42,149 bases of DNA. Origin: a virus. Taxonomy: Duplodnaviria > Heunggongvirae > Uroviricota > Caudoviricetes. Within the stretch, counting starts at the first letter, position 1, and each line of letters begins with the position of its first letter. The DNA is taken from the IMG/VR virus record IMGVR_UViG_2541047883_000004; one strand, 5' to 3'. Positions 4,922-20,684 of this stretch are shown in pieces. Both the position numbers and the translations under genes were made by a program. The notes below the pieces were generated by a model. That model saw only the letters and a list, made by a program, of their open reading frames with translations. It made no database searches and was not told the origin of the DNA.

Positions 4922-6172
4922 TACCGATATGCTCCACTTAACCGACCACCATCACGGGCCTGCTGTTGCATAAAGTCCGCTGCCGCTTTTTTCCCGAGGT
5001 CATAAACCGCCTTCAGGGCAGCCGGACCTATCTGCCCGTTCGTGCCATCGTTATTGATCTCGATGTTGTACTGCGGGGAAAACATCGCCATACCTGAACC
5101 CCCAATATCCGCCACAACCCCCAGCTTACCGTCAGCACCACGACGCAATGGCAGAATGGCTTCAGGTCCCGCTTCCCCCATCACACCCGCGCCTTTTGCA
5201 AAAGCAAAAAACGTCGGACGGTTAACCACCGTGCCACTGTAACGACTCAAATCAGCAGACTGATAAATCCCCCCATTGGCATTCAGGGAAAGGCTGCTGA
5301 GATCAAATCCCAGTACACTGCCAATCCCTTTTATCGATTTCATCATGGTTGCCTGCGCCAGGATTTTCGCCATATCTGACAGCACAGAAGAGGTGAAGGA
5401 TTTGAAATTGAGTTTGCCGGTAGTGACAAAAGTTGCCAGGCCATTTCCCATGTTGCTGAAGGCTGACGAGAACACCTGTTCTGCTGTTTCTGCCGTATTA
5501 TCTGCATCCACGGTAAAATCCTGAAATGCACGCAGGACTCCGTTTTTCCAGTTACCCTGCACAACTTCAAGCTGTTGCCAGTAACGGCGATTCTCATTCA
5601 GTTGTCGGTTCAGGCTCTCCGTCAGCGCCTGCTCGGCCTTTCTGTAGTCATCCGTGTTATATGTCCCTTTCTGCTCACTATCCCGCCTCAACTGCTCCAG
5701 CTGTTGCTGGTATTTCTGGCGAAGACTCAGTTGTACCTGATATCGCTGTCGCTGCTGATCACCCATACCCACCGTGGCGATATCCAGGTCATGTTGCTGA
5801 CGCTGAGCGCGCTCTTCTTCAGCCAGTTGACTGGTCAGCTGAATTGTTTTTTTCTTCAGCTCGTTGAGTGCCGTCTGTTTCTGAAGCTCCTGCTGTTTTA
5901 CATCCAGCAGCGTCAGTGCCTGAATCAGTTCATCTTTACGGGCCAGCACACTCTTTTCATCTGCCGTCAGTTTTTTCCCGTCCAGGTCGCTGATGCGCTG
6001 CTGCAGAGCCAGGAGCTGTTTATGCGCTTCTGTCATCCTTTCCGTGGCAATGCCTGCTGACTGTCTGGCAGCAGCAATCTGTCCTTCCACCTGTGCCTGT
6101 TGCTGACTGTACTGCAGCAATAACCGGGTGGCCTCATCATTACGGGTTTCGCGTGTTTTTTTCTTACCGGAT
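4921..6172 (-). pseudogene. H: Tape measure protein H, C-terminal fragment (split by IS insertion)
   Basis: The frame stays open upstream of the ORF-finder start up to the IS junction (... GKKKTRETRNDEATRLLLQYSQQQ ...). The C-terminus (NNDGTNGQIGPAALKAVYD ... RDGGRLSGAYR) resembles the lambda gpH C-terminus. Confidence 0.85.
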
Positions 6173-6265
6173 TATGAGACGACAATAACTCAGTCCGCCT
6201 GGCGCCGATTATTCTGGCCGGTTTTGTAACCTGAGTGTCATTTACATGATCCAACAGGAAATGGC

Positions 6266-7765
6266 GTGACGCTCAATACTTCTCAGGTCAGTTACTATAT
6301 GACTCAGCGTAAGAAAGGTATAACTCAGCATATCTCGGCCATGAAGGCTGGTATCTCAGTCCGTTCTGGTCGTCGGATCGAAAAAGGAGAGTGGGCAAAA
6401 AACAGTGTTCGGCACTGGCGCACACGCAAAGATCCTCTGGAAGCTGTGTGGGACAGCATGCTTGTTCCTCTGTTGAAAGAGAGGCCGGCTCTGACACCAA
6501 CAACTCTGCTGGAGATGCTACAGGATAAATATCCCGGCCAGTACCCCAACAGCCTTCGAAGAACAATGCAACGGCGGGTCCGCGAATGGAAGCTACAGTA
6601 TGGTGCAGAGCAGGAGGTCATGTTCCGCCAGCGACATCAGCCCGGTCTGCGAGGTCTGTCGGACTTTACTGAACTGAAAGGTGTAGTTGTCACCATCGCC
6701 GGTAAGTTGTTGGCGCATAAGTTGTATCACTTCCGTCTGGAATGGAGCCACTGGAGCTGGATGCGGGTTGTGCTGGGTGGTGAGAGCTTCTCTGCTCTGG
6801 CTGAAGGTCTGCAGGAAGCCCTCGGACAACTGGGCGGAGTGCCGGTAGAACATAAAACGGACAGCCTGAGGGCAGCATGGAAACAACAGGGCGAAGATGG
6901 ACGCCGCGAGCTGACTGAGCGTTATGCTGCTCTCTGTCAGCACTACGGAATGCAGGGCGTACACAATAATGCCGGTCGGGGCCACGAAAATGGCTCGGTT
7001 GAAAGTGCCCACGGACATCTGAAAAGGCGTATCTGTCAGGCGCTGATACTGCGGGGCAGTAACGACTTCAGCACCATAGAAGAATATCAGGCCTTCATCA
7101 CTCAGCAGGTTATGCGGCACAACCGTAACAATCAGGATCTGGTCAAGGAAGAACGTCTTCATCTGAAACCGCTGCCGCTTCGTCGCAGTGCTGACTATGA
7201 TGAGCTGACTGTGAGGGTTAGCCGCAGCAGTACCATCAATGTGAAGCACGTCGTCTACAGCGTACCTTCCCGGCTTGTAGGTCAACTGTTACGGGTCCGG
7301 TTATGGGACGATCGTCTGAGCTGTTACGTTGGCAGCAGCGAGGTCATGAGCTGCCCACGTGTCAGACCAGAAAAAGGGAAGACGCGGGCCCGTCGTATCG
7401 ACTTCCGACATGTGATCGACAGTCTGGCAAAAAAGCCCGGTGCGTTCTGCCATGCAACGCTGAGAAATGACATCCTGCCAGACGATGAATGGCGGAGGCT
7501 GTGGCGTCGCTTATGTAATCATCTGGAACCCGACATGGCAGGCAGGCTGATGGTACATGCTCTGAAACTGGCTGCAGGATACGACGATATCTCAGTCGTG
7601 GCAAAAGGTATGGAGCAGATGCTGAATACCCCGGGAAACGTGGATCTGCACCGGCTGATGCGCTTCCTGGGTATAAAGGAAAAGGCGTTGCCGGTAGTCA
7701 ATGTGAAACAGCATAACCTGAGCAGTTATGAGCAACTACTGCGTGGCAAGGGAGGTTCGCAGTGA
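6266..7765 (+). CDS. istA: IS21-family transposase IstA (GTG start)
   Basis: 499-aa translation with N-terminal HTH and an integrase-type catalytic core; immediately followed by an overlapping istB, the typical IS21 arrangement. Confidence 0.85.
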   Translation: MTLNTSQVSYYMTQRKKGITQHISAMKAGISVRSGRRIEKGEWAKNSVRHWRTRKDPLEAVWDSMLVPLLKERPALTPTTLLEMLQDKYPGQYPNSLRRTMQRRVREWKLQYGAEQEVMFRQRHQPGLRGLSDFTELKGVVVTIAGKLLAHKLYHFRLEWSHWSWMRVVLGGESFSALAEGLQEALGQLGGVPVEHKTDSLRAAWKQQGEDGRRELTERYAALCQHYGMQGVHNNAGRGHENGSVESAHGHLKRRICQALILRGSNDFSTIEEYQAFITQQVMRHNRNNQDLVKEERLHLKPLPLRRSADYDELTVRVSRSSTINVKHVVYSVPSRLVGQLLRVRLWDDRLSCYVGSSEVMSCPRVRPEKGKTRARRIDFRHVIDSLAKKPGAFCHATLRNDILPDDEWRRLWRRLCNHLEPDMAGRLMVHALKLAAGYDDISVVAKGMEQMLNTPGNVDLHRLMRFLGIKEKALPVVNVKQHNLSSYEQLLRGKGGSQ

Positions 7766-8517
7766 GCAATATCCATCACCTTGAACGCAGCCTGCGTAAA
7801 CTACGCCTGACACGAGTTGGAGCTGAATGGCACGCTCTGGAAAAACGAGCACTGGCAGAAGGCTGGACACCATCGCGCTATCTTCTGACGCTATGCAATG
7901 AAGAACTCCTGTGGCGCGAGAGTGAAAAACTGCGTCGTTATAAAAAGGAGGCCCGGTTGCCAGTTGCCAAAACGCTAAGCGAATACGACTTCAGTCAGGT
8001 GCCGGAACTGAATGGAGCTCAGTTCCGGCAACTCTGTGAAACGACAGACTGGGTTGATGCAGGAGAAAACGTTCTGCTGTTCGGAGCCAGCGGGTTGGGG
8101 AAAAGCCATCTGGCGGCAGCGATCGTGGATGGCGTAGTAGGCCAGGGCTACCGGGCCCGGTTCTACAGCGCAGGAGAGTTGTTGCAGGAACTACGTAAAG
8201 CCAGAGCGCAGTTGAAACTGAATGAGCTGCTACTGAAACTGGATCGCTACCGGGTGATAGTGGTGGATGATCTTGGCTATGTCAAACGCGACAGCGCCGA
8301 AACGGGAGTACTGTTCGAGTTAATAGCGCATCGCTATGAACGTGGGAGCCTGGTGATAACCAGTAACCATCCGTTCAGCATGTGGGGCAGCATCTTCGTG
8401 GATGAGACTATGGCGGTGGCGGCGGCAGACCGGCTGATCCATCACGGATATATGTTCGAACTGAAAGGTGAAAGCTACAGGAAAAAGACAGCGAAGGCAG
8501 TAACAAGCGCGACTTGA
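7762..8517 (+). CDS. istB: IS21-family ATP-binding helper IstB
   Basis: 251 aa with Walker A (GASGLGKSH) and Walker B (VIVVDDLGY); start overlaps the istA stop. Confidence 0.85.
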   Translation: MSNIHHLERSLRKLRLTRVGAEWHALEKRALAEGWTPSRYLLTLCNEELLWRESEKLRRYKKEARLPVAKTLSEYDFSQVPELNGAQFRQLCETTDWVDAGENVLLFGASGLGKSHLAAAIVDGVVGQGYRARFYSAGELLQELRKARAQLKLNELLLKLDRYRVIVVDDLGYVKRDSAETGVLFELIAHRYERGSLVITSNHPFSMWGSIFVDETMAVAAADRLIHHGYMFELKGESYRKKTAKAVTSAT

Positions 8518-8582
8518 TGTCGCACTGAAGGGTGCGGCCAGTATAGTTGGCGCGAGTCGGCAAAACTAGTTGACGTCTAATA

Positions 8583-10402
8583 CCGGATGCCAGGGCTTTC
8601 TCGTAACGTTCATTTTCACGTTGTATCGCCGCATCCCTGACAGCCTGATCGGCGTACTGCATGGCATTAATACGCGCAATTTCACGCTGATGTCGTGCAG
8701 CTTCCGTTTCATTCATCCGGTTCAGTGCAGCATTTTCAGCATTACGGCGTTTCTGTTGCTCCTGATAATTCCGCTCTGCCTGCTCTTTTGCATCCTGCAA
8801 ATCCTTCTGGCGTTTTTTCTCCTGAAGATCGTTAAGACGCTGCTGATCGTATTCAACCTGAGAAGATGATGCCGTCCAGGGGAGTCTTTTCGCCCGCGAC
8901 ACTTTCTCCTGCAAAGTGGCAATCTGCGCATCCAGCGAATCTTCACGACCAATATTCATGGCCGCATCCCAGAACTGCTTCCACCAGTCAGACAAAGTTT
9001 GCAGCGTACTGCCCAGCGCATTGAGGTTATTATCAATATCCGCAGTACGCCGACCGGTTTCCTCTGCCAGTGCAGACATGGCTATCCGTGCCGCATCACT
9101 GGACCGCCCCTGCTCTCCAAGGACGCGTATCTGCTCAAGCTGAGTGGCAGTAAGAAAATGCAGCTCATTGTCCAGAGACTTCGCGGCATTTACAGGATCA
9201 TCCTTCAGCCGCTTAAACTGATTTATGGTATCGCTGACCGACTGGCCAACCGATCGCTCCATCTGTGCGGCAGCTCTCGCCACCATACCGATATCGTTTC
9301 CACGAAATGCACCACTCCCCACCACCTGAGCCAGCGCACCGGCTGCAGCATGTTGCGTGATACCATTCCCGGAAATAGCACGACTGAGCGTCCACAGCTG
9401 CCCGGCAGTGACTCCGGCATAATGCCCCGTCAGCGACAGCTGGCGGTTAAATTCTTCCCCCTCCTTCTGACCGTCATACCAGGCTTTACCCAGACCATAG
9501 ACGGCCGCGGTAATACCGCCAATAACCCCGCCCAGCATCATGCCTTTCGGTGACATCAGTGTGTCTATCCATCCGGCACGGTTAGCCAGCGTTATCCCGG
9601 ATCCCCTCAGCGCCCCTAAATTGCCGCGGGCCAGTTCACCTATCAGAACGCCTATCTCCTGGCGGGCCGCTGCACTTTTCAGACCCAGCGAATGCGTGGC
9701 TTTTCCTGCCCGCTCCATTTTGCGGATATACACTTCTGCAGCACTGCTTACCCCCAGCTGGGCAGCCCTGGCACGAAGCAACTCAGAAGAAGAAAGATTC
9801 TGGCGGGTTGCCTGCTCTTTAAGCTGACGGATAAACGCCACTTTCTGTCGGGTAGCCTCTGCCTCAGCCTGCGTAAGAACACGGGTTTTCGCCGTAACCT
9901 CAGAAATCAGCGCCAGATAATCCTGCTGACCAATCCCGCCACTGTTTCTGGCCTGTCGGATCTGCTGCTGAATACGCTGTAATTCCTGCAGCCCCGCACT
10001 GGCCTGTTTCACACTGTCAATCTGACGATAAAACGCAGCAGCCGCTTTATCCTGAGCCTCCGCCAGAGCGATGGCCTGCGCCTGTTCCTCGCGCATTTTC
10101 TGGCTCAGTGCCTCCATGCGCTGGCGGGTTTTCTCCACCTCGCGGGCCATGCGTTCATGAGCCTGTGCGTTCTTCTCCACCGTCTGCGCATGGACGGATG
10201 CGGCTGTTGCAGCCGAAGAAGCTGCCTGCGTTGTCTGCCGGGCGGCCTGAGTCTGACGCTCCATAAAACGCTGCATACGGGCAGAAGACCGTTCTGCATC
10301 GCTGGCTGCACCATTCAGAAGGTTTTTGATACGGGGAATTTCATTTTTAAACTCTGCCGCATCAATCCCCAAATCAATGACCAGGTTGGCTATCTGGTCC
10401 AT
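8583..10402 (-). pseudogene. H: Tape measure protein H, N-terminal fragment
   Basis: Start MDQIANLVIDLGIDAAEF at 10402 with SD GGAGGTG. The frame reads ... ERYEKALASG up to the IS junction; the ORF-finder tail beyond 8583 is IS sequence read through. Confidence 0.85.
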
Positions 10403-10703
10403 AACGCACACCTCCGGAAATACCTTCCCCAAGATGCATCAGTTCTTCGTCCGTTCGCTCCGGTATCCCGTTCTCTTCCGGTAAAAGGCTGAAATCAGCC
10501 ACCGCAGCATCACTGCTGCCGGACACCATTCTCACGATCAATGCCTTCAGCGAGGCAAACTGCGCATCCATCCACACATCACTGAAGCTCTGCATCCGGA
10601 AATAATCGCCCCACTCACCAAGCTCAGTGGCCGACATTTCCGACAGCATCCGCCGCCAGTCTGCCCGCCGGAACTCCCGGGCAAGCCGCATGACAAACTG
10701 CAT
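10374..10703 (-). CDS. T: Tail assembly chaperone T segment, expected to be made as a G-T fusion by -1 frameshift
   Basis: This ORF is in the -1 frame relative to G and is open across the G 3' end. Position and arrangement match lambda G/GT. Confidence 0.65.
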   Translation of the reverse strand: MQFVMRLAREFRRADWRRMLSEMSATELGEWGDYFRMQSFSDVWMDAQFASLKALIVRMVSGSSDAAVADFSLLPEENGIPERTDEELMHLGEGISGGVRYGPDSQPGH

Positions 10704-10711
10704 TTCCCGCG

Positions 10712-11101
10712 TCAGGACTTTTCCGGCGTCAGCGCCTCATGCTCATCATCCACGGCATTATCAATGGCCCCCATACCGCTCAGCGACAGAACCATCTCCG
10801 CCCCCGCACCCAGGGCATCATACGACCATGTTGTAATAACGGATGCGCAAAGCGTCTCTACATCCTTAGACTGATCCGCATTCCACAGTGAGCGGGAAAC
10901 CAGCCAGGCATTGATATCCATCCCCATCCGCAGAAAAGCAATCTGTCGTTCAGCCTCCGGCAGTTCTCCCTCCACGGCATCAAACTTTGCCGTTCGCTGC
11001 TGAACAAACGTCAGATATTCAATTCTCTGCAGCCCGGACAGCTCACTGAGCACCACGGACTGTTTTTCATAATTAAACGTGTCCTGTTTCAGAAACATCA
11101 T
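10712..11101 (-). CDS. G: Tail assembly chaperone G
   Basis: Start MMFLKQDTFNYEKQ with SD GGTGGAG. Lambda G position between V and T/H. Confidence 0.75.
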   Translation of the reverse strand: MMFLKQDTFNYEKQSVVLSELSGLQRIEYLTFVQQRTAKFDAVEGELPEAERQIAFLRMGMDINAWLVSRSLWNADQSKDVETLCASVITTWSYDALGAGAEMVLSLSGMGAIDNAVDDEHEALTPEKS

Positions 11102-11112
11102 GTTCTCCACCT

Positions 11113-11138
11113 GCAAAAAAGCCCCGCATAACCGGGGC
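11113..11138 (-). terminator. Rho-independent terminator between V and G
   Basis: Minus strand reads CCCCG-GTTATG-CGGGG followed by CTTTTTT. Confidence 0.6.
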
Positions 11139-11158
11139 AAATGATGAGTATCGTCCTG

Positions 11159-11902
11159 TTAACCTGCTGCGCTGACAGTCACCGCAGTCACAGCCACAAA
11201 ATTCCCGTCAGCGGTCATGCCCACAATGCTGACACTGCCCTGCTTCACGCCTTTTACCGTGGCCACAAGTCCGTTCAGGGTAACCGTGGCAGTCTGTGGA
11301 TCTGACGAATGCACACTGATCGCTTTGTCACTGGCTCCGTCAGGTTTTACTGTAAAGGTCAGCGTGGTGGTTGCTCCCACTTTTACATTGGCAGACGCCG
11401 GTGATACTGTCAGCCCGGTAACGCTCACGGTTTCAGTGCCTTCCTCTGCCAGATACGGACGCCCCACACCGCTGATTTTCACAGTGCGGGTCATCACGTC
11501 TTTTGAGGCAATGGTTTTACCCAGTGAGCTCAGCCAGCCACGGAAAACATCAACAGTGCCGTTGGGATATTTGATACGAAACGCGCAGACTTCACCGGAG
11601 TCGAACAACTGAACCAGTTTTTTCTGCCCGCTGTCACCCGGACGCCAGGCCAGCGTCGCCGAAGTATCACCAACGGATTTCTGCCCCTGGGTTGTCGTTT
11701 TCCAGTCTGCATCTTCATCATCGAGATAAGTGTCATCTTCTGCATCAGCGGTCATTTCGCCAGGTTGCAGATCCTTCACCATCGCAAGACGCAGCCAGTC
11801 AGTGTCCGACAAAGGGTTCGCAAACGCATCGCCGTTGCCGGTATACATCCAGAACGTCGTCCCCGCACCTTTCGTCTTTGCCAGTGGATTTGGTGTGGTC
11901 AT
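11159..11902 (-). CDS. V: Major tail protein V with C-terminal Ig-like (Big_2-type) domain
   Basis: Start MTTPNPLAKTKG at 11902 with SD AAGGAGG. C-terminal Thr/Val-rich Ig-like repeat region as in lambda gpV. Confidence 0.85.
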   Translation of the reverse strand: MTTPNPLAKTKGAGTTFWMYTGNGDAFANPLSDTDWLRLAMVKDLQPGEMTADAEDDTYLDDEDADWKTTTQGQKSVGDTSATLAWRPGDSGQKKLVQLFDSGEVCAFRIKYPNGTVDVFRGWLSSLGKTIASKDVMTRTVKISGVGRPYLAEEGTETVSVTGLTVSPASANVKVGATTTLTFTVKPDGASDKAISVHSSDPQTATVTLNGLVATVKGVKQGSVSIVGMTADGNFVAVTAVTVSAAG

Positions 11903-11912
11903 TACCACCTCC

Positions 11913-12326
11913 TTAATTCGTGTACGTGATCTGGTACGTGATTTCCGCCATCGCCCAGGTGGCCATCTCATTATCACGTTGATAGTTAAAACCGAGTGGG
12001 TTCAGGGTGTCGATGAGTCCGGAAAGTGCCGGTACATCATTCAGGGCCGGGAAAATGGTGCTCTCCATCCACATATCCAGCTCTGAATCCGGTGCCTGTG
12101 CCCGGATGAAGACGGCAATATGCAGAACAGCCTGCCAGTCATCTTCATCCGTCATTTTTCCGGTGTACTGAGCATCACTCAGCCACACCGCCACGGCAGG
12201 CAGTTCCTGCGCATCAATAAATGCCGGAAGCCCGTCAAAAAACGTGGCGCTGTCTCCACACTGTTCCCGAAGGCGTGCCAGTACGACCTGGCGGATTTGT
12301 GTATGTCGGTTCATCGGGTCAGCCAT
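11913..12326 (-). CDS. U: Tail terminator protein U
   Basis: 137 aa with motifs ATFFDG, PAVAVWL and DSELD-WMES that match lambda gpU as recalled. Confidence 0.85.
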   Translation of the reverse strand: MADPMNRHTQIRQVVLARLREQCGDSATFFDGLPAFIDAQELPAVAVWLSDAQYTGKMTDEDDWQAVLHIAVFIRAQAPDSELDMWMESTIFPALNDVPALSGLIDTLNPLGFNYQRDNEMATWAMAEITYQITYTN

Positions 12327-12901
12327 AACCTCAGTTGTTGTTTCAGTGCATACCCCAGCTGTTTCGGCATTTCCGCAGCAATGATGTGGTCGCGGGCATC
12401 TTCAAATGCCTGTGTCAGCGGTCCGGACAGCGGGATTTTCACTACCTCCACAGGAAGACGATTTTTTCTTGGCCTGCCCTGATGGTCATGCCCTGTTGCA
12501 AAACGCGCTTCAGGAAGACGCCTCAGAACATGCCAGCGGCCATTCGCCAGTTGCTGAACAAATGCCCCCCGGAAAAAGTATTTTCCCACTCTCAGTCCTT
12601 CACCAGCACGCCGCCGTGTTGTGTTCAGTTTGATGGCGGGCAGATTGCCCCGGTTAACGCGGATCCTGGCCGTCATTTTTCCTGACGGACTGGCTTTAAA
12701 CACCCGGACACGCTGACGTACCAGTTTCAGGGGGATCCCTTTCACCTGGTTATCTCCCGCAACGGTATTCCCGGCAACCTGCCGGGTGGCAACCGAGACC
12801 GCTTTCTGTGCCACACGGTTTATCGCCCATGCGCTGGCCTGTGGCACCATACGGGTATCAAGGCTGTTCAGATTGCGGATGGCATTCTCAAGCCCCTTCA
12901 T
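12311..12901 (-). CDS. Z: Tail completion protein Z
   Basis: 196 aa in the lambda Z position, upstream of and overlapping U. Confidence 0.7.
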   Translation of the reverse strand: MKGLENAIRNLNSLDTRMVPQASAWAINRVAQKAVSVATRQVAGNTVAGDNQVKGIPLKLVRQRVRVFKASPSGKMTARIRVNRGNLPAIKLNTTRRRAGEGLRVGKYFFRGAFVQQLANGRWHVLRRLPEARFATGHDHQGRPRKNRLPVEVVKIPLSGPLTQAFEDARDHIIAAEMPKQLGYALKQQLRLWLTR

Positions 12902-12912
12902 CCCACACCTCT

Positions 12913-13188
12913 TTACTCAATAAAGATCATTGGCTTACCGTTAAAGCGTTCATGCCGTGTGACCGTCCATTGTTGTCCGTCATAAACAACGCGATCCCCG
13001 CGCCGTGGGCGGTATCCCGAAGAAAACACCACCAGAGAGACCGCAGGTCCGGACAGAGCATTCAGCTCTGCCAGTGTTTCTCCCGGGATCACAGTCATAT
13101 CGACATCATTAATCGAGGCTGTCTTTCCCATCTTTCTGACCGTGATCGCATCCATACGCGCTGCCAGCCGGGAAAAGGGATCAGACAT
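12913..13188 (-). CDS. Head-tail connector protein (FII-like)
   Basis: 91 aa in the FII position (between head genes and Z), with an RRGD motif reminiscent of lambda FII. Confidence 0.5.
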   Translation of the reverse strand: MSDPFSRLAARMDAITVRKMGKTASINDVDMTVIPGETLAELNALSGPAVSLVVFSSGYRPRRGDRVVYDGQQWTVTRHERFNGKPMIFIE

Positions 13189-13504
13189 TGAGTTTTACCG
13201 GCACTTCTTCTGCACTGGTTCCGGCATCTGCCCAGACAACCCCGACCAGCGGATCAGAGCCGCTGTTAGTCAGCTGAACTTTTCCGGACTTCAGATAAAC
13301 CTTCTTACCCGTTTTCATGTCATCCGTTTTCAGCTTAGGCAGCATAAACACACCTTCGGTCATGCCGTCGCCTGTTTCACCCTGTGGAATATCGGTCAGC
13401 GCCACCGCAAAAACATCACCCACCTGCACCAGCTCTCCGCTGCTGATGGCTGCACTGGCAACAATCGCCACCGTTTTTCCTTCTTCTACAAAATTCTTTG
13501 CCAT
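13181..13504 (-). CDS. DUF2190-like head protein (possible decoration or head-completion protein)
   Basis: Start MAKNFVEEGK at 13504 with SD GGAGA; Gly/Val-rich small protein directly downstream of the capsid gene. Confidence 0.45.
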   Translation of the reverse strand: MAKNFVEEGKTVAIVASAAISSGELVQVGDVFAVALTDIPQGETGDGMTEGVFMLPKLKTDDMKTGKKVYLKSGKVQLTNSGSDPLVGVVWADAGTSAEEVPVKLNV

Positions 13505-13548
13505 AACTGTCTCCGCACAGCCCCGTTCAGGGGCTGATTTCAGGTACA

Positions 13549-13572
13549 AAAAAAGCCCTTACGGGCCATCAG
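13549..13572 (-). terminator. Rho-independent terminator after the capsid gene
   Basis: Minus strand reads GCCC-GTAA-GGGC followed by TTTTTTT; a second stem-loop (CAGCCCC-TGAA-CGGGGCTG) lies at about 13521-13539. Confidence 0.6.
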
Positions 13573-13590
13573 AGTTGTTGTCTGCGACGT

Positions 13591-15549
13591 TTACGCCGTA
13601 CATTTCACCAGACCGCGGTGATCAACTGGCGCGACACCGGCGTCAATACGCACTTTCGTTGTCACGCCATCCACACTGAAGCCCTCCATCTGATCAATAT
13701 ATGGCGTATCCACACCGTTGAGATAAGCCACTTCAATCGTATCGGAGCCTTTTGACGCAGCCAGGTAGAAGGTGGTCTGGCTGTTATCATCAAGACGAGG
13801 CTCTGCAATAACGGTCGCAAAATCTTTCACCGGGTTAATAATACCGGCGTTAATGTCAGCCCCCTTGACACTTGAGGAGCGAATGACCTGGTTAGCAACA
13901 GACTCCATCGCCGTCGGTACCAGTACGAACGCAGGACGAATATTCAGATGACGCTCCCCCTCTTTCTGAACGCGCATCAACTGGCGGGCTTTATCCAGCG
14001 ATGCCACGTCCATTGCAGCGCTCTCCAGTACGTTTGCATGTTTCGCTTTATCGAACAGACTTACATTATCTGTGGAGATTTTCGGGTTAGACGTCAGAAT
14101 GGCATAAACCAGATCGGCAATAGTGGATTTCGCCGCACGGCCCAGTTTCATCGGGACATCGGTCAGCATATTCAGATCATCATTGATAATGGCCTGACGG
14201 GTGATACTGAACAGCTCGCCATAGGTCGCCAGTGCAATAGTGGCCTGTTTATCTCCGGTGGTGACGTATTTATATTCCGCCCCTTCACGCACCTGACGCA
14301 GAGCACTGAAGCCCCCCATACCCACACGATGGGCAATTTTAAAATCAGACAACTGACCTTTCCGCGTCCATTGTTCATAGGTTTCAGGAGCATCTTCCCA
14401 GCCCTGCAGAATGGCTTTGTTCGCAACATCCAGCAGAATATTACCGAAGTCAGACGTACTGTGGGTGAACGCCGCACCGACCATCTGCATCGGGTTATAA
14501 CCGGAAACCCCAATACCCCGTTCAGTCAGTGACATACGGGCATATTCACGCAGGGTCATCCCGTTGTAGACATTATCACGTTCGGTTTTTTCAAATCCGG
14601 CACGCGCCATCAGCGCCTGGCGGATCCCGTCCCCCACAAAATTACCGTTACCAGCATAAATATGAGCCGGTGTATTTTTATTGGATGGCGTGGACTCGCG
14701 CCCCATCTCGTTCAACAGCTTTTCGCGGGCCTGCTCCAGCGAACACTCAGGATCGGCAAGACACTGAGCCTGCAGCGTCTGATAACGCCCGCCAAACATG
14801 GCAAACAGATCATTAATACCGTTTACACGCGCTTTTTGCTCTGCCAGTACCTGCGCACGGATACTGTTTTCATCCACCACGGGTGCTGCTGCCTGCACTG
14901 GCGTCCGGGAGGCTGCAGGTTCATCATCCTGTACGCGTGGAGCACTGTTGCGTGGCGGAGTAATCATGTTTCGAATGGATTCCGGCATCTTTTTAAATTC
15001 CTCTGTACGTTTTGACTGAATACATGCCATTGCCTTAACGGCTGGCGTCACCTGATCAGCAAATCCATGTGCCAGACATTCGGCACCGGACATCCAGGTC
15101 TCATCCGCCAGCATGGCAGCAATTTCATCGGTGGTTTTCCCGGTTTTCTGTGCATAAGCGGGTAACAGAACCGCCTCAACCTTATCGAGCAGGTCGGCAT
15201 AGGTGCGCATGTCCTCCGCATCACCGCCCGTAAAGCCAAATGGTTTATGAATCATCATGAAGGTGTTTTCCGGCATAATGACCGGGTTTCCCACCATCGC
15301 AATGACCGACGCCATTGACGCCGCCACACCGTCGACATAAACGGTAATGGACGCACCATGTGTTTTCAGCGCATTAAAAATGGCGATGCCTTCAAAGACA
15401 TCGCCACCCGGTGAATTGATATGGAGATTAATGTGGGTGATATCGCCCAGTGCATTCAGATCACTGATAAACTGCTTCGCTGTAACACCCCAGAAACCAA
15501 TCTCGTCATAAATATAAATATCCGCGTCACTCTGGTGACCAGCCTGCAT
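13591..15549 (-). CDS. Prohead protease (ClpP/S14 family) fused to major capsid protein
   Basis: The N-terminal part has ClpP-like active-site context (GVAASMASVIAM with Ser; MIHKPFGF with His). The C-terminal roughly 400 aa is capsid-like. Start MQAGHQSDADIYIYDEIG lies 14 nt after the portal stop. Confidence 0.8.
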   Translation of the reverse strand: MQAGHQSDADIYIYDEIGFWGVTAKQFISDLNALGDITHINLHINSPGGDVFEGIAIFNALKTHGASITVYVDGVAASMASVIAMVGNPVIMPENTFMMIHKPFGFTGGDAEDMRTYADLLDKVEAVLLPAYAQKTGKTTDEIAAMLADETWMSGAECLAHGFADQVTPAVKAMACIQSKRTEEFKKMPESIRNMITPPRNSAPRVQDDEPAASRTPVQAAAPVVDENSIRAQVLAEQKARVNGINDLFAMFGGRYQTLQAQCLADPECSLEQAREKLLNEMGRESTPSNKNTPAHIYAGNGNFVGDGIRQALMARAGFEKTERDNVYNGMTLREYARMSLTERGIGVSGYNPMQMVGAAFTHSTSDFGNILLDVANKAILQGWEDAPETYEQWTRKGQLSDFKIAHRVGMGGFSALRQVREGAEYKYVTTGDKQATIALATYGELFSITRQAIINDDLNMLTDVPMKLGRAAKSTIADLVYAILTSNPKISTDNVSLFDKAKHANVLESAAMDVASLDKARQLMRVQKEGERHLNIRPAFVLVPTAMESVANQVIRSSSVKGADINAGIINPVKDFATVIAEPRLDDNSQTTFYLAASKGSDTIEVAYLNGVDTPYIDQMEGFSVDGVTTKVRIDAGVAPVDHRGLVKCTA

Positions 15550-15562
15550 CCTGAACCAGGAA

Positions 15563-17071
15563 TTATTCTTCGGACTGGTCGTCGGTGTGCTGCGGCTCCT
15601 GTCGTTTCGTTGCGGCACTGCTGCCTCCTTTATCACTGGCCGGATCGGTATCAAATACCAGATCCAGCTTGCGGTTTTCATCAATTTCTGCCTTGCGCCG
15701 ACGTTTGACATCATCCGGATTACGACCACCTGCACGTACCCAGTCTGATTCTGTCGCCGCTCCACCACGAATCTGAATTTTCCAGGCCTCAGCCTCCTTA
15801 ACAGGGTCAATCCACGGCATCACCGGTCCGGAATACACCGCGGTATACAGTGAAGAACGGTCAAGATCGCGGGGTAGCCTGATAACACCGGATGCCACAG
15901 CCTGTTTCAGCCAGGCACGATACATCGGGCGGGTGACGGCACCAATAAACCAGTCCTGCAGGATCAGGTAGCCATCAGTGGATTCAACCAGCTCCTGACG
16001 CTGGGCGCTGTAAGTGCCGTTATAGTTGCGCGCTGTACTGGAAAAACTCAGACGACTGCCCGCCGCCACGGCACGCAACTGACCATTACGAAAAGTTTCA
16101 AGGTTAGGATTGGGGCGATCCGACTTCACCATTCCGATTTCTTCGCCGGGTTTCAGATCGTCGTAAATAATGCCTGGCTGAATGGTAAGCTCGCGTTCAT
16201 TCTCCTTGCTGTCATTACCATCCGTTTCATAGCTCTGTCCGTCGCCTTTGCGGATGTACATCCCCAGAGCAGCAGCGATCCTTGCTGCAGTCAGCTCAGA
16301 ATCTTCATATTCTTTCAGGGCACTGAGGCGGATCAGCACACCGGACAATAAAGACGTCCCGCGCATCTGGTGCAGACGGCGAACAAATTTAAGATGCAGC
16401 ATTCGCTCTGCATCCACTTCTTTGGTTTCCATCTGCCGTCCGGATACAGGACGACTTTTATACACCAGATATTTTTCGGGACGCCCCCAGTCATCAACAA
16501 ACACGCCCTGATTCAGCCTGTTGCTCTCATCACTGGTCATGGGAATAAAGTCTGGCTCGAGTGCCTCCAGCCAGAAATGAACACCGGCAGAAGGCGTCAG
16601 GCTGTTTATGCGCCCGGAAACCATCTGGGCAAACACCTCACCATCGCGCAGCCAGGTACGCAGCATCAGACGTTCCAGCATCGGACGGGTAAACTGCCCG
16701 GTAACTTCCGGACTGACAGACCATTCACTCCATCGGGTGCGTATCTCCGCTGCCAGATCACGGGCAATGGCCCCATTGCGTAATACCGGATGTGGCTCGA
16801 CAATAATCCCGTTTTTCCCCACCACCCGTTCTTCCAGCTTGTCAAATACACCAATGACCAGATCGTGGTTGTTATCAAGGTAACGGGCCTGCTCACGTAA
16901 CGACACGGCCCCGTAGAGGCTTAACTGGTCGGCAGTTCGGTTTTCCCGCCGGGCTTTGTGTGTCCGCGTCGTTTTTACGGCCTCATAAGCCTGGATCACC
17001 GCCCGGGAACGCAGCCTTGCCGCTTTCCATCCTGGTGAAAAAACGCCAATCACATCATCAAGAATTGCCAT
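15563..17071 (-). CDS. Portal protein (lambda gpB family)
   Basis: About 502 aa from MAILDDVIGVFSPGWK. The ATG overlaps the W stop (TGATG). Located between W and the protease-capsid gene. Confidence 0.85.
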   Translation of the reverse strand: MAILDDVIGVFSPGWKAARLRSRAVIQAYEAVKTTRTHKARRENRTADQLSLYGAVSLREQARYLDNNHDLVIGVFDKLEERVVGKNGIIVEPHPVLRNGAIARDLAAEIRTRWSEWSVSPEVTGQFTRPMLERLMLRTWLRDGEVFAQMVSGRINSLTPSAGVHFWLEALEPDFIPMTSDESNRLNQGVFVDDWGRPEKYLVYKSRPVSGRQMETKEVDAERMLHLKFVRRLHQMRGTSLLSGVLIRLSALKEYEDSELTAARIAAALGMYIRKGDGQSYETDGNDSKENERELTIQPGIIYDDLKPGEEIGMVKSDRPNPNLETFRNGQLRAVAAGSRLSFSSTARNYNGTYSAQRQELVESTDGYLILQDWFIGAVTRPMYRAWLKQAVASGVIRLPRDLDRSSLYTAVYSGPVMPWIDPVKEAEAWKIQIRGGAATESDWVRAGGRNPDDVKRRRKAEIDENRKLDLVFDTDPASDKGGSSAATKRQEPQHTDDQSEE

Positions 17072-17283
17072 CAGAACCTCGCCAGCCGGTACCCGGGATG
17101 CCCCCGTCGTCGTGTAATCAGAGCCGCAAGGCGGCGCTCCCACTCCTGCCGTCCCTGCCGGATCTCAGATAAGTTTTCCATGGTCATCTGCTGACCATTA
17201 AAGGTGACGGATTTTCCGTCCAGCACCGCCATTTCAGCTTCCGTATAACGCTGAATCATGGCTTCGATATCATTCTGGTTCAT
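17071..17283 (-). CDS. W: Head-tail joining protein W
   Basis: About 70 aa ending RRRGHPGYRLARF, similar to lambda gpW. Start MNQNDIEAM has SD GGAGG at 6-nt spacing and overlaps the terminase stop (ATGA). Confidence 0.75.
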   Translation of the reverse strand: MNQNDIEAMIQRYTEAEMAVLDGKSVTFNGQQMTMENLSEIRQGRQEWERRLAALITRRRGHPGYRLARF

Positions 17284-19379
17284 AACCATCCTCCGGAAGT
17301 CAGCCAGGGGTTAACATCGTTAGTTACTGTTTTCTTCCGTTTTTGTTTTTTAACAGGCGTGGATACCGGTTCCGGTGAGGGTGACGGTTCGGTACTGTCC
17401 GGGACACACTCCAGCCAGGTTTCCCGGCTCGCCCACTCCGGTGCATCCGGCCAGCGGATCTTTTCGTATCCATGCAGAATGACCAGAGCCTCGGCATACA
17501 CCATCAGGTCAAAAGCTTCGTTGGCACCGCGACCCGGCTTACTCCATTTCCCGTCACTGCTCCGCTCTTCATACGTCAGTTCGTCGTAAAACCAGCTCCC
17601 CAGCCAGTCAGGGAAATGCACATAGCCGGGACCTGGCGAGTCACGCCATAACGCGTTATTCACCCGGTCTTTCAGTGCATCCGTCTGAAGAAGCCAGAGC
17701 GGCACATCACCTGCGGCCTGCGCCCGTCGGCCCGTTCGTCCGGTGTTATCAGGGAATGTACGGGTGATCAGTTTTGCGCGCCGGATGCTGTCGCCCTTAA
17801 ACAGGTAAATACGTTTACCAAGGCCATCACGACGGCAACGACGCCAGAATTTATAGGCATTATCAGTGACCCCGTCTTCACCGCCGGAGTCCACCGCCAT
17901 TGCCATCAGTCGCATTTGTTGAGAAGGATCGGAGGCCAGCGGCCAGCTTTTATGAAAAACATCCGTCAGCAGGACATCCCAGTCTTCCGGATAGCTGGCC
18001 GGATCAATTCGCTGGCTCTCCCCGTCGCAGTCACTGCGCAATGACTGCGTGATATTGTAACGATCAATAATCCAGCGTTCGCCACGACTGCCATAGCCAG
18101 TTACCTGAACCACAAAACGGCGATGACGTCCCGCCTGAACATCCACTGTCGCCACAAGGAAATTAACGCCATCCGGCACACTGCAGGAAGGAACTGGCTC
18201 TGCCCGCTGCTCAAGCAGTTCACTTTTTCGTTGCTCCATGCTGGCACGAGGAAGATAAGGCAATCCCCAGTCGGTGTTGATAACCGCCCTGAGTGTTTCT
18301 TCGCTTCCTGTCGCTTCATACTCCTGTTCTGCAGTCAGTAATTTGTAAACCAGTTGCGCCCAGGTCTGATACGCAGCAGCTGGCCCTTCCATCCAGAAAC
18401 TGGCGATACGGGAGCGGCGCGGTTCACCGGAAACGTTGCCGTTACGATCAATGACCTGACCTTCACGCAACCAGACTCCTGCACTATTGAGCTCACGCTT
18501 TTTCTCCGCAGTGATAATGCCGCTGCAGTGCGGGCAAAGTAGATACGCCGCCTCACTGGCTTTAAAGGGATCCGGTTCATTACGGTAGCCGGTCATGGCA
18601 TCCATAGCTGGCTGAAAATATTCACCGCAGTGCGGACATGGCCAGTACCAGCGGCGGCGGTCACCACGATTGTAAAGGGAAAGAATACCAGTCGTCGGTG
18701 GCGCTTCATGAGGCGACTTACGTCGCCATTTGCTGTCGCAGATGTCACGTCCCGGCGAGCTCTCCACCAGAGTCATCCCGGCGGACATAAATGTGGTGGT
18801 ACGTTTTGAGGCCAGGGAGAAACCATCACCCTCGCTGTCGATATTCTCCGGAAAACGGTCGTAATCGGTTAAGGCGACAAACCGGTAATCCGACGACGAC
18901 ATAATGTTGACCGAGGGCCAACCAATTTTAAGGAACGAGCCATCCCTGAACGTCTTATCATGGACATTATTGTCGTTACGACGTGGACTCATTCTTTTCT
19001 TTACCGCCGCACTGCTTCTGAACGTTCTGTCGAGGCGCTTTTTAGAATGCTCGCGGGCCTTATCTTCGGTCATCTGCACAACGAGCATGTCCGAAGGATC
19101 GCAAACGATGGTATAGACAATCCATCCATCGATCAGACCAATGGTCTTCCCTGTTCGCGCAGGACCAACAAAAATCACCGCATCGTATTCACGCGATGCC
19201 AGGCAGTTCATGGGCTCAATGATGTAGGGTGTCAGTTCAGGATCCCATGGCACCGAGTTACCAGCCCCCTTGGGAACACGCATGAATTTTTTAACAGCCT
19301 CCGAAATCGGCATGCGACGTGGTGGGGAAAATCCTGCCGATATGTCCCTTCCCAAATTTCGGGCTGATGAAAAACCCAT
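17280..19379 (-). CDS. A: Terminase large subunit (lambda gpA family)
   Basis: 699 aa with Walker A-like GPARTGKT, a CPHCG zinc motif and a C-terminal nuclease region; sits between Nu1 and W. Confidence 0.85.
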   Translation of the reverse strand: MGFSSARNLGRDISAGFSPPRRMPISEAVKKFMRVPKGAGNSVPWDPELTPYIIEPMNCLASREYDAVIFVGPARTGKTIGLIDGWIVYTIVCDPSDMLVVQMTEDKAREHSKKRLDRTFRSSAAVKKRMSPRRNDNNVHDKTFRDGSFLKIGWPSVNIMSSSDYRFVALTDYDRFPENIDSEGDGFSLASKRTTTFMSAGMTLVESSPGRDICDSKWRRKSPHEAPPTTGILSLYNRGDRRRWYWPCPHCGEYFQPAMDAMTGYRNEPDPFKASEAAYLLCPHCSGIITAEKKRELNSAGVWLREGQVIDRNGNVSGEPRRSRIASFWMEGPAAAYQTWAQLVYKLLTAEQEYEATGSEETLRAVINTDWGLPYLPRASMEQRKSELLEQRAEPVPSCSVPDGVNFLVATVDVQAGRHRRFVVQVTGYGSRGERWIIDRYNITQSLRSDCDGESQRIDPASYPEDWDVLLTDVFHKSWPLASDPSQQMRLMAMAVDSGGEDGVTDNAYKFWRRCRRDGLGKRIYLFKGDSIRRAKLITRTFPDNTGRTGRRAQAAGDVPLWLLQTDALKDRVNNALWRDSPGPGYVHFPDWLGSWFYDELTYEERSSDGKWSKPGRGANEAFDLMVYAEALVILHGYEKIRWPDAPEWASRETWLECVPDSTEPSPSPEPVSTPVKKQKRKKTVTNDVNPWLTSGGWL

Positions 19380-19387
19380 TATTCCTC

Positions 19388-19915
19388 CTAGAGACTCTCT
19401 CCTTCCTCATCAGGAATTAATTCAGCAGCACAAGCCTCGTAGGATTTTTCCTGAAGAGTGTATCGCAGGTCATCAATGGCCTGCTGTACAACGCCGACGG
19501 CCTGAGGAGTCAGAGCGCAATCGCGTTCAAGAACATCCGGAATTGTCTCCAGAACCTGGACGACAGCCTTTCTCATGGACGAATAGACGATGACTACTTC
19601 ATCAACTGGGATGAGTTTTCGCTGCTCCTTTTCCAGCTTGATCCTTTCATTTTCAGACTGGTACCAGTCCTTTCTCTCTTTCGGCTCCATACGGGATGGA
19701 TCATGAACAGAGTCTGCTCCCTCATGCTTCACACTAAACAGGGCGGGCCCGACATGCTGCAGGGCGTAAACGGGGTTCCCCCTGACAGTCGCAGCCACAG
19801 GAGTGTTGGCCGCGAGGAGCCGTTTTTTTACTGTGTCCCGGTGAAGCCCAAAGGCCTCGGCGATTTTAAAAACACTCCAGTAATAAGCATCACCGATCCC
19901 GCTCACATTTGACAT
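19388..19915 (-). CDS. nu1: Terminase small subunit (Nu1-like, wHTH)
   Basis: Start MSNVSGIGDAYYW with SD GGAG; N-terminal HTH; immediately downstream of the cos site on the minus strand. Confidence 0.75.
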   Translation of the reverse strand: MSNVSGIGDAYYWSVFKIAEAFGLHRDTVKKRLLAANTPVAATVRGNPVYALQHVGPALFSVKHEGADSVHDPSRMEPKERKDWYQSENERIKLEKEQRKLIPVDEVVIVYSSMRKAVVQVLETIPDVLERDCALTPQAVGVVQQAIDDLRYTLQEKSYEACAAELIPDEEGESL

Positions 19916-20089
19916 AAGCAACTCCATCTGGCAGGTGAAAATCAGGTTTATTTATATATTTCAATTAATTGCAAACTGGTCTAATGACAGGAAGAAAAAA
20001 ATATTGTACAGGTGAAAAGGGAAATAACTTTTAATTATCAATAAATTACCAAACATGCTGCCGCCGCCATGGAAATGCAAAAACTAGCC

Positions 20090-20125
20090 TTTTTCCGCGA
20101 CGCTCCCGCCCCGTGGCAGGGCCCC
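20090..20125 (-). other. Cohesive-end site cosN (lambda-like)
   Basis: Minus strand reads CACGGGGCGGGAGCGTCGCGGAAAAAGGC, against lambda cosN TACGGGGCGGCGACCTCGCGGGTTTTCGC as recalled. An A/T-rich cosB-like spacer (19928-20090) separates it from the nu1 start. Confidence 0.6.
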
Positions 20126-20477
20126 CCACTGGGAGGACCCGACAGCCTGACAACCGTGACGAGCATCTTTAACAGAGCTTTACATAATGGCATGGGGATA
20201 ATTCAGAAGGACATCACAGCATGCCCACACAAATTAGTGTGAGTGTCCTGTTTCTTACTACGCGCAGGACTGACGAGCATGAGGGGAAAATACGAGAACC
20301 GAAATGCCTTATCTTCAGAAATGCAGCCGGCATCCGAACTGGACGATATTGTAAATTCACCTAAATACGAGGCATTGCTGTAGTTGAATTGCATTGCTGT
20401 ATTAGCCTGACAGTGACAGAATACGATATTGACTCTGTCACTTGTGAAATGGTCAGAATGGTTAGCAGTTATGGTGA

Positions 20478-20684
20478 TCAGTCAACCACCAGGGAATAAT
20501 CCTTCGTATTCTTATCGTGCTTTACTAACGCGGCCTCAATTGCCCTGAATGCTTCCAGAGACACTTGATGTTCTATACATGCAATTACAACATCCGGGTA
20601 ACCCATCGAAATGGTGCTATTAAGCATAGTTTTTACACGAACCTGCTCCTGGGAGGGGGCATCAGTGTATTGATCTTTATGCAT
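20478..20684 (-). CDS. Hypothetical small protein near cos
   Basis: 68-aa ORF only; no recognised motif. Confidence 0.3.

Follow-up and report, generated by a model that had tools for sequence, protein, structure and literature searches.

A lambda-type cos site with an already known variant cohesive end in a common Escherichia coli lambda-like prophage

The stretch of DNA analyzed here (IMG/VR record IMGVR_UViG_2541047883_000004; 42,149 nucleotides, hereafter the window) carries a real, ordinary lambda-type cos from a lambda-like E. coli prophage of a common kind, in a variant that is already known. It very probably belongs to a lambdoid E. coli prophage of the Tritos/cdtI type. All comparative evidence at hand supports a lambda-type cosN exactly at the position given in the initial annotation (within 20090-20125), and the nick positions, the cleavage itself, and the 12-nt length of the cohesive end are predicted by homology.

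The string proposed in that annotation as a lambda-like cosN with a variant cohesive end, CACGGGGCGGGAGCGTCGCGG, was found on the minus strand at 20095-20115, and the lambda sequence set beside it agreed with NC_001416. The window reads CACG/GGGCGGGAGCGT/CGCGG, and its counterpart in the lambda record reads TACG/GGGCGGCGACCT/CGCGG, with slashes marking the nicks; the wider minus-strand context is ...GTCGGGTCCTCCCAGTGGGGGGCCCTGCCACG GGGCGGGAGCGT CGCGGAAAAAGGCTAGTTTTTGCA... The lambda record, as fetched, ends with ...CAGGTTACG (in a longer read, ...GGGTCCTTTCCGGTGATCCGACAGGTTACG) and starts with GGGCGGCGACCTCGCGGG (longer read, GGGCGGCGACCTCGCGGGTTTTCGC). When the two were anchored at the nicks, 16 of the 22 bp of the core were identical, including 8 of the 12 bases of the overhang. 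Positions 1 to 6, 10, and 12 are the same and positions 7, 8, 9, and 11 differ, which bears out the description of an overhang with a conserved 5′ half and a different 3′ half, positions 10 and 12 of the latter being shared as well. The flanks, ACG before the overhang and CGCGG after it, are those of lambda, and CG dinucleotides are present at both predicted nicks, 12 bp apart. Anchored alignment with lambda, LLS, PSTCR8lys, Fels-1, E1V33, and cdtI/Tritos delimited a cosN core, CG/GGGCGGGAGCGT/CG, at 20098..20113 on the minus strand, made up of the 12 bp and of 2 bp next to each predicted nick. Comparison with lambda and related cos sites had been named as the way to check the assignment; the match falls on the real cos junction, where ACG/GGGCGG and /CGCGG are invariant in 11 of 11 aligned sequences and variation is found only at positions 7 to 12. 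When the literature was searched for the overhang 12-mer in both orientations, nothing came up but papers on mammalian promoters, which are unrelated.

The putative 12-nt 5′ cohesive end, GGGCGGGAGCGT (20100..20111, minus strand), is marked by the ends of deposited phage genomes. In a megablast search of 50,697 phage records, cdtI (AB285204 / NC_009514) and Tritos (OV696610) were found to begin at query position 370, corresponding to 20111 in the window. Base 1 of both records is thus the first base of the overhang; they open with GGGCGGGAGCGTCGCGGAAAAAGG and close with ...GGGTCCT(T/C)CCGGTGGGG..CCTGCCACG, ending ...CCACG. When the window was aligned locally with Tritos by BLAST, the alignment broke exactly at 20111/20112, and the identity was 98.99% over 11.5 kb (window 8581-20111), a segment that covers cosB, the terminase, the head, and part of the tail genes. 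The left end of the virion DNA would hence be 20111, running to lower coordinates, and the site defines the packaging ends as had been claimed, with the cuts assigned by homology. Tritos, carried by E. coli LF82 as its prophage 3, has been shown to form virions and plaques (PMC9928086). That paper contains no end mapping, the Ahp2 paper contains no end data, and a literature search yielded no paper on a third phage, HannyBb (PP925841). The cosN 12-mer, its flanks, the I2 segment, and the cosB class are all identical between the window and cdtI, Tritos, and HannyBb, and DNA identity from +1 to +72 is 99-100% for Tritos and HannyBb and 95.8% for cdtI. Upstream of cos, the right-end region is about 88% identical to that of Tritos and is unlike that of cdtI beyond cosQ. 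None of the at least 120 IMG/VR contigs with the site ends there, the site being internal in all of them. The record starts of cdtI and Tritos already sit at the identical end, and the cos variant is not new.

Upstream of cosN lies a cosQ-like heptamer, GGGTCCT (20134..20140, minus strand), which matches the lambda heptamer perfectly over its 7 bp. Its first base is 29 nt from the top-strand nick, versus 30 nt in lambda. Among the IMG/VR contigs with the same cosN (at least 120), the spacer and the left flank upstream of cosN vary; GGGTCCT is kept in most of these upstream-flank variants, and a few carry a one-base change.

The genes next to the site are those of a packaging module. Downstream of cos, and on the same strand, the order is a DUF1441 ORF, the large terminase, a 72-amino-acid (aa) ORF in the gpW position, and the portal. 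The first of these is the small terminase gene (19388..19927, minus strand; Pfam DUF1441, E=4.7e-44), which encodes 179 aa from its first ATG at +185. Its probable start is M5, a residue nearly invariant among the homologues, at 19915 (+197). Lambda nu1 starts at +191, and the expected distance upstream of nu1 noted in the initial annotation is indeed observed, but the gene at that distance is a DUF1441 small terminase and not nu1. In a BLASTP comparison with lambda Nu1, the protein gave E=5 and no detectable similarity; there was no sequence match in the PDB, Pfam gave DUF1441 only and not Phage_Nu1, and NCBIfam had no model for either terS or terL. The protein is 99.4% identical to those of cdtI and Tritos. 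Its family also includes members in the mEp043/213/460 group, LLS, Gifsy-2, Fels-1, VT1-Sakai-type prophages, and PSTCR8lys, as well as in Aeromonas and Vibrio phages and even in the cyanophage Cr-LKS3. An AlphaFold2 model built on a 42-sequence alignment (pLDDT, 82) has at residues 16 to 64 a strand-helix-helix-hairpin-helix arrangement, i.e., a winged helix-turn-helix, followed by long helices. The best local Foldseek matches of the model were MerR-type winged helix-turn-helix proteins (RacA, BldC, the MerR family, and Xis), all weak (E, 0.085-0.9), and another weak match was a 54-residue chain in the viral DNA-packaging motor entry 7lwr; TM scores of the matches were 0.56-0.76 relative to the target. 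These models suggest that the small terminase is a Nu1 analogue with a predicted MerR-like winged-helix N-terminus, for which membership in the Nu1 family is unsupported, and that it probably works like Nu1.

The large terminase (17280..19379, minus strand; 699 aa) belongs to the gpA family and contains both the ATPase and the endonuclease domains of gpA (PF05876 GpA_ATPase, 5e-81; PF20454 GpA_nuclease, 2.3e-86). It is 24% identical to lambda gpA (BLASTP E=6e-22). The portal gene (15563..17143, minus strand) is of the lambda family (Pfam Phage_portal_2, 1.1e-81).

Between cosN and terS, the spacer from +18 to +184 has a GC content of 32%, versus 49% for the whole window, and contains a perfect IHF consensus, in keeping with the A/T-rich cosB-like spacer described initially. 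It is preceded and partly overlapped by an I2-like segment, CGCGGAAAAAGGCTAGTTTTT (20079..20099, +13..+33, minus strand), which is common to all cosB classes, is identical in at least three cosB/TerS classes, and has similar counterparts in LLS, PSTCR8lys, Fels-1, and the cyanophage Cr-LKS3 (CGCGGAAGTCGGCAGTTTTT). At the position of R3, which in lambda occupies bp 50-65, there is a class-specific element, CCATGGCGGCGGCAGCATG (20054..20072, +40..+58, minus strand), that covaries with the TerS class and is a candidate for the primary small-terminase binding site. The perfect IHF consensus, TAATTTATTGATA = YAANNNNTTGATW, follows at 20036..20048 (+64..+76, minus strand); it is analogous to lambda I1, and the other cosB classes, as well as PSTCR8lys, have a TTGAT core at a similar distance. 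Farther on, a direct repeat, TTTTCACCTG, occurs twice on the minus strand, at 20009..20018 (+94..+103), a candidate R-type site, and 77 bp past this copy at 19932..19941 (+171..+180). A second IHF-like site with one mismatch, CAATTAATTGAAA (19959..19971, +141..+153, minus strand), likewise lies 77 bp past the first. Each IHF site is thus followed about 30 bp on by a copy of TTTTCACCTG (at +94 and +171), giving a unit with a 77-bp period. A similar motif, CAGTTTTCACCTGACAG, precedes terS in the Providencia phage PSTCR8lys. The repeats were found by a custom 10-mer scan that recovered R3/R2/R1 of lambda as a positive control and yielded a clean R3-I1-R2(inverted)-R1 set in Fels-1 (CATCATCAT); a default repeat finder run on cosB gave nothing useful. 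An R3/R2/R1 triplet like that of lambda or Fels-1 was not evident in the window cosB, and its repeats are regarded as candidate TerS sites on sequence grounds.

Compared with lambda, the window thus shares the 12 bp between CG nick flanks, the left half GGGCGG, the cosQ heptamer, an IHF site in cosB, a terS about 190 bp from the end, and the gpA and lambda-portal families. It is unlike lambda at the four overhang positions, in a cosQ that is 1 bp closer, in a cosB of unrelated sequence, in a small subunit of DUF1441 rather than Phage_Nu1 type, and in a gpA identity of only 24%.

Natural variation in lambda-like cosN is reportedly confined to overhang bases 7 to 12. In the relatives aligned here, the junctions are ...GGGTCCTCCCGGCAGGGTGTCCTGCCACG/GGGCGGCGCGCT/CGCGGGAAACGGCTAGTTTTT for LLS, where the feature is annotated as "5' extended single-strand cohesive site"; CCACG/GGGCGGCGTGCT/CGCGGGAAACGGCTCATTTT for PSTCR8lys, with the right half CGTGCT; and CCACG/GGGCGGCAGCGG/CGCGGGATTTGGCGCATTTTT for Fels-1, with the right half CAGCGG. 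The LLS paper states the LLS/mEp213 ends as inferred, crediting Feiss and Vahanian 2017. The LLS/mEp213 and mEp460 group, whose heads are Gifsy-2-like and whose TerS is of the DUF1441 type, is like the window in its terminase families and in the framework cosQ...CCTGCCACG/GGGCGG....../CGCGG..GGCTAGTTTTT, and the overhang 12-mer of mEp460_ev081 is identical to that of the window; the group is unlike the window in the LLS overhang, GGGCGGCGCGCT, and in its other cosB/TerS specificity classes, with about 41% TerS identity. Two deposited members have irregular sequences near the junction. The mEp460_4F5 record (LR595868) opens 5 nt ahead of the nick and lacks 3 bp within cosN (GGGCGGGAGCG-CGG), possibly an end-assembly artefact, and mEp460_ev081 (LR597641) contains a tandem duplication of about 100 bp of the cosB start (GGCTAGTTTTTGAAATTTC...).

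Changes at bp 7-12 are common in lambda-like cosN, and cosQ, which is highly conserved in lambda-like phages, is kept along with the CG dinucleotides at the nicks (Feiss 2015, PLoS One). The N15 overhang differs at positions 9 and 12 and that of Gifsy-1 at positions 8, 9, and 11, and cos cleavage is not measurably affected by right-half changes (Feiss 2015). As aligned, the window cosN obeys this published rule, varying only within bp 7-12 and keeping cosQ and the CG flanks. The prophage of Escherichia sp. E1V33 (NZ_RHJI01000023, 2702-2748; overhang GGGCGGAAGGCG, right half AAGGCG) encodes Nu1 and gpA proteins 98-99.5% identical to those of lambda, yet five of its six right-half overhang bases differ. 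By these identities, it is a natural example of right-half freedom with an essentially lambda terminase.

Taken together, the above-described features suggest how the site would work. After induction, the prophage would replicate as concatemers, by analogy with lambda. The DUF1441-type small terminase would bind the AT-rich cosB (+34 to about +184), assisted by an IHF bend at +64..+76, and this binding would place the gpA-type large terminase on cosN. The large terminase is predicted to nick the top strand between 20112 and 20111 (ACG/GGG) and the bottom strand 12 bp away (GCGT/CGCGG); strand separation would leave the 5′ overhang GGGCGGGAGCGT, and the bottom strand would start 5′-ACGCTCCCGCCC. 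Packaging would then run from cosB to lower coordinates through terS, terL, the portal, head, and tail genes, and would end at the next cos with the assistance of its cosQ.

The gene order of the virion chromosome, about 46 kb, was mapped on Tritos. It starts with cosB, terS, terL, the portal, and the head genes (0 to about 8 kb), followed by the tail genes, J, and the side fibres (about 8-22 kb); then come pin, int, xis, exo, the immunity region, the replication genes, and Q, and the right end consists of cspB, the lysis genes, cspI, gnsB, ybcV, and ybcW, and then cosQ. The csp/gns genes and the tail genes had been thought to lie at opposite ends of the virion chromosome. This held for the csp/gns genes, which are at the extreme right, and only loosely for the tail genes, as the left end is made up of cosB, the terminase, the portal, and the head genes, with the tail genes after them. 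In the window, gnsB, the csp genes, and the lysis genes are located upstream of cos, on the side that becomes the right end of the virion DNA. Just upstream of cosQ in the window, at the position of YbcW in Tritos, there is a 68-aa ORF (20478-20684, minus strand) with no Pfam family; we take it to resemble lambda p79, and its flanking DNA (20440-20500) presumably resembles the right-end region of lambda.

The window copy differs from Tritos and cdtI by an IS21-family element of 2,408 bp (6173-8580) inserted in the tape-measure gene. The element encodes istA (6266-7765) and istB (7762-8517) on the plus strand and is bordered by an 8-bp target duplication, TACCGGAT, at 6165-6172 and 8581-8588, and the break corresponds to Tritos 11524-11531. 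The prophage in the window is therefore probably tail defective, and this copy may never yield infectious particles because of the insertion. Could the site, then, be a cos by descent that is functionally silent here, belonging to a prophage in decay whose DNA is not packaged at all or is packaged only with a helper? The broken tape-measure gene would fit such a reading, as would several segments between 20.7 and 37 kb that have diverged from Tritos or are absent there, but we consider it unlikely. A tail defect in lambda blocks neither cos cleavage nor DNA packaging. Furthermore, cosQ, cosN, and cosB are about 99% identical to those of the plaque-forming Tritos, terS and terL have the lengths of cdtI orf1 and orf2, and the portal ORF is full length. 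Even a silent site would still serve a related helper terminase as a substrate.

Less probable still, and by a good distance, is a genuine cos whose nicks are not 12 bp apart, for example, one with the 9-nt overhang GGGCGGGAG. This reading draws on the cyanophage Cr-LKS3 (OM373202), a Cylindrospermopsis phage of 66% GC whose DUF1441-type TerS is 39% identical to that of the window and for which cohesive ends with 5′ extensions and an overhang of 9 nt, GGGCTCGCG, have been reported. In addition, GGGCGGGAG/CG also fits the rule of a CG after the nick, and in S. Typhimurium LT2 the prophage Gifsy-2 (NC_010393, about 690-730), which reads CCACG-GGTGGCTTCGGGCT-CGCGGGAATCGGCTGATTTTT and is without GGGCGG, has its conserved flanks 14 nt apart. 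Gifsy-2 cos is either atypical or degenerate; its 14 nt indicate that overhang length is not immutable in the family. Against a shorter overhang in the window, the Cr-LKS3 record, in which a cosQ-like GGGTCCC lies upstream, begins with GGGC and continues with CGCGGAAGTCGGCAGTTTTT past its 9 nt. With the overhang as reported, the nicks in lambda and Cr-LKS3 have the same landmarks, one just before GGGC and the other just before a CGCGG(A/G)A block. These two landmarks are 12 nt apart in the window, and this spacing gives the strongest available argument for an overhang of 12 nt; the block preceded by the bottom nick is at +13 in the window as in LLS, PSTCR8lys, and Fels-1. The large terminase, moreover, shares 78% identity with its counterpart in an LLS-type prophage, and the deposited records have the 12-mer for their end. 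From E. coli prophages to Cr-LKS3, the framework of cos is kept across phyla.

The site was also compared with chance expectation. The pattern ACGGGGCGGNNNNNTCGCGG, with up to two mismatches allowed, has a single match in the window, with no mismatches, where 0.05 is expected, and at least one match occurred in 5 of 100 shuffles. The composite GGGTCCT-N(20-25)-CGGGGCGG has one match in the window and none in 100 shuffles. On these statistics, the cosN match exceeds chance. A scan of GTDB with a cosQ-plus-cosN pattern returned 32 matches, of which about 20 are due to chance, being in genomes of 55-76% GC with no terminase nearby. The spacer in that pattern was N20-24 before ACG and that of the window type is 19 nt, excluded by one base, so that the lack of window-type cos among the matches is uninformative. 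The scan also brought up assemblies from unrelated phyla that contain the lambda cos exactly or nearly so (Raphidiopsis brookii, Aeromicrobium, Archangium, and an Alicyclobacillus plasmid), most likely through contamination by lambda or a cosmid vector. It can practically be dismissed that GC-rich sequence came to resemble lambda cosN by chance, or that the likeness stems from coding by the overlapping small ORFs of 51 and 57 aa (20038-20193, minus strand; 20069-20242, plus strand). The pattern does arise by chance in GC-rich genomes, and in some records gene callers have placed hypothetical proteins over the site. The GC content of the window, however, is 49%, the composite is absent from the shuffles, terS and terL are at the right distance, and phage records open at the site; conservation, moreover, is limited to cosQ, cosN, and I2, the spacers are variable, and the pattern is not that of a coding sequence.

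The exact 28-mer GGGCGGGAGCGTCGCGGAAAAAGGCTAG was found in no fewer than 120 IMG/VR contigs, most of which are prophages from the genomes of isolates. Downstream of cosN, these contigs are identical to about +33 and diverge from about +34 into at least three cosB classes, each with one TerS sequence class, and terS starts at +184 to +186 in all of them. From about +34, cosB reads GCATTTCCATGGCGGCGGCAGCATG in class A, to which the window belongs, GAAATTTCATTCGTCATCACCAC in the mEp460-like class B, and GCATTTTTATCGGCCACCATCATC in class C, and the helix-turn-helix regions of the corresponding TerS proteins read ...KIAEAFGLHRDTVKKRL, ...LAALSGVHRQTAAARL, and ...LAALSGLHRQTVVARL, respectively. The presence of one cosQ-cosN-I2 block on at least three cosB/TerS classes points to a recombination boundary right after I2. 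The arrangement is that of lambda and phage 21, in which cosQ and cosN are identical and the cosB/TerS specificity is different (Feiss 2015). At the R3 position, units with a 3-bp periodicity are found, GGCGGCGGCAGC in the window and CATCATCATCAT or CATCACCAC in the sister classes. Tentatively, and with somewhat less than even confidence in the two propositions jointly, we suggest that the cosB recognized by DUF1441-type TerS may be an uncharacterized variant of the lambda design, in which units with a 3-bp period occupy the R3 position, the IHF site is fixed at about +64, and repeats follow downstream, and that cosQ-cosN-I2 to about +33 is a cassette recombining among E. coli prophages of at least three classes of packaging specificity. 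In that case, packaging by one of these prophages could terminate on the cos of another but would initiate only on its own.

The site reveals no new principle, since right-half variation has been documented, as has the combination of one cosN with cosB of different specificities. Of 5,426 complete E. coli genomes, 2,188 (about 40%) contain a partial match to the cos region, and 563 (about 10%) contain at least 80% of it; with sequence of this region in about 40% of the genomes, its correct annotation is of practical value. The location of cos fixes the ends and the orientation of the virion chromosome for the prophage family, which aids prophage annotation, and it puts the csp/gns moron block at the far right end. 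It also helps to predict which DNA is packaged first, namely, terS, then the head genes, and then the tail genes.
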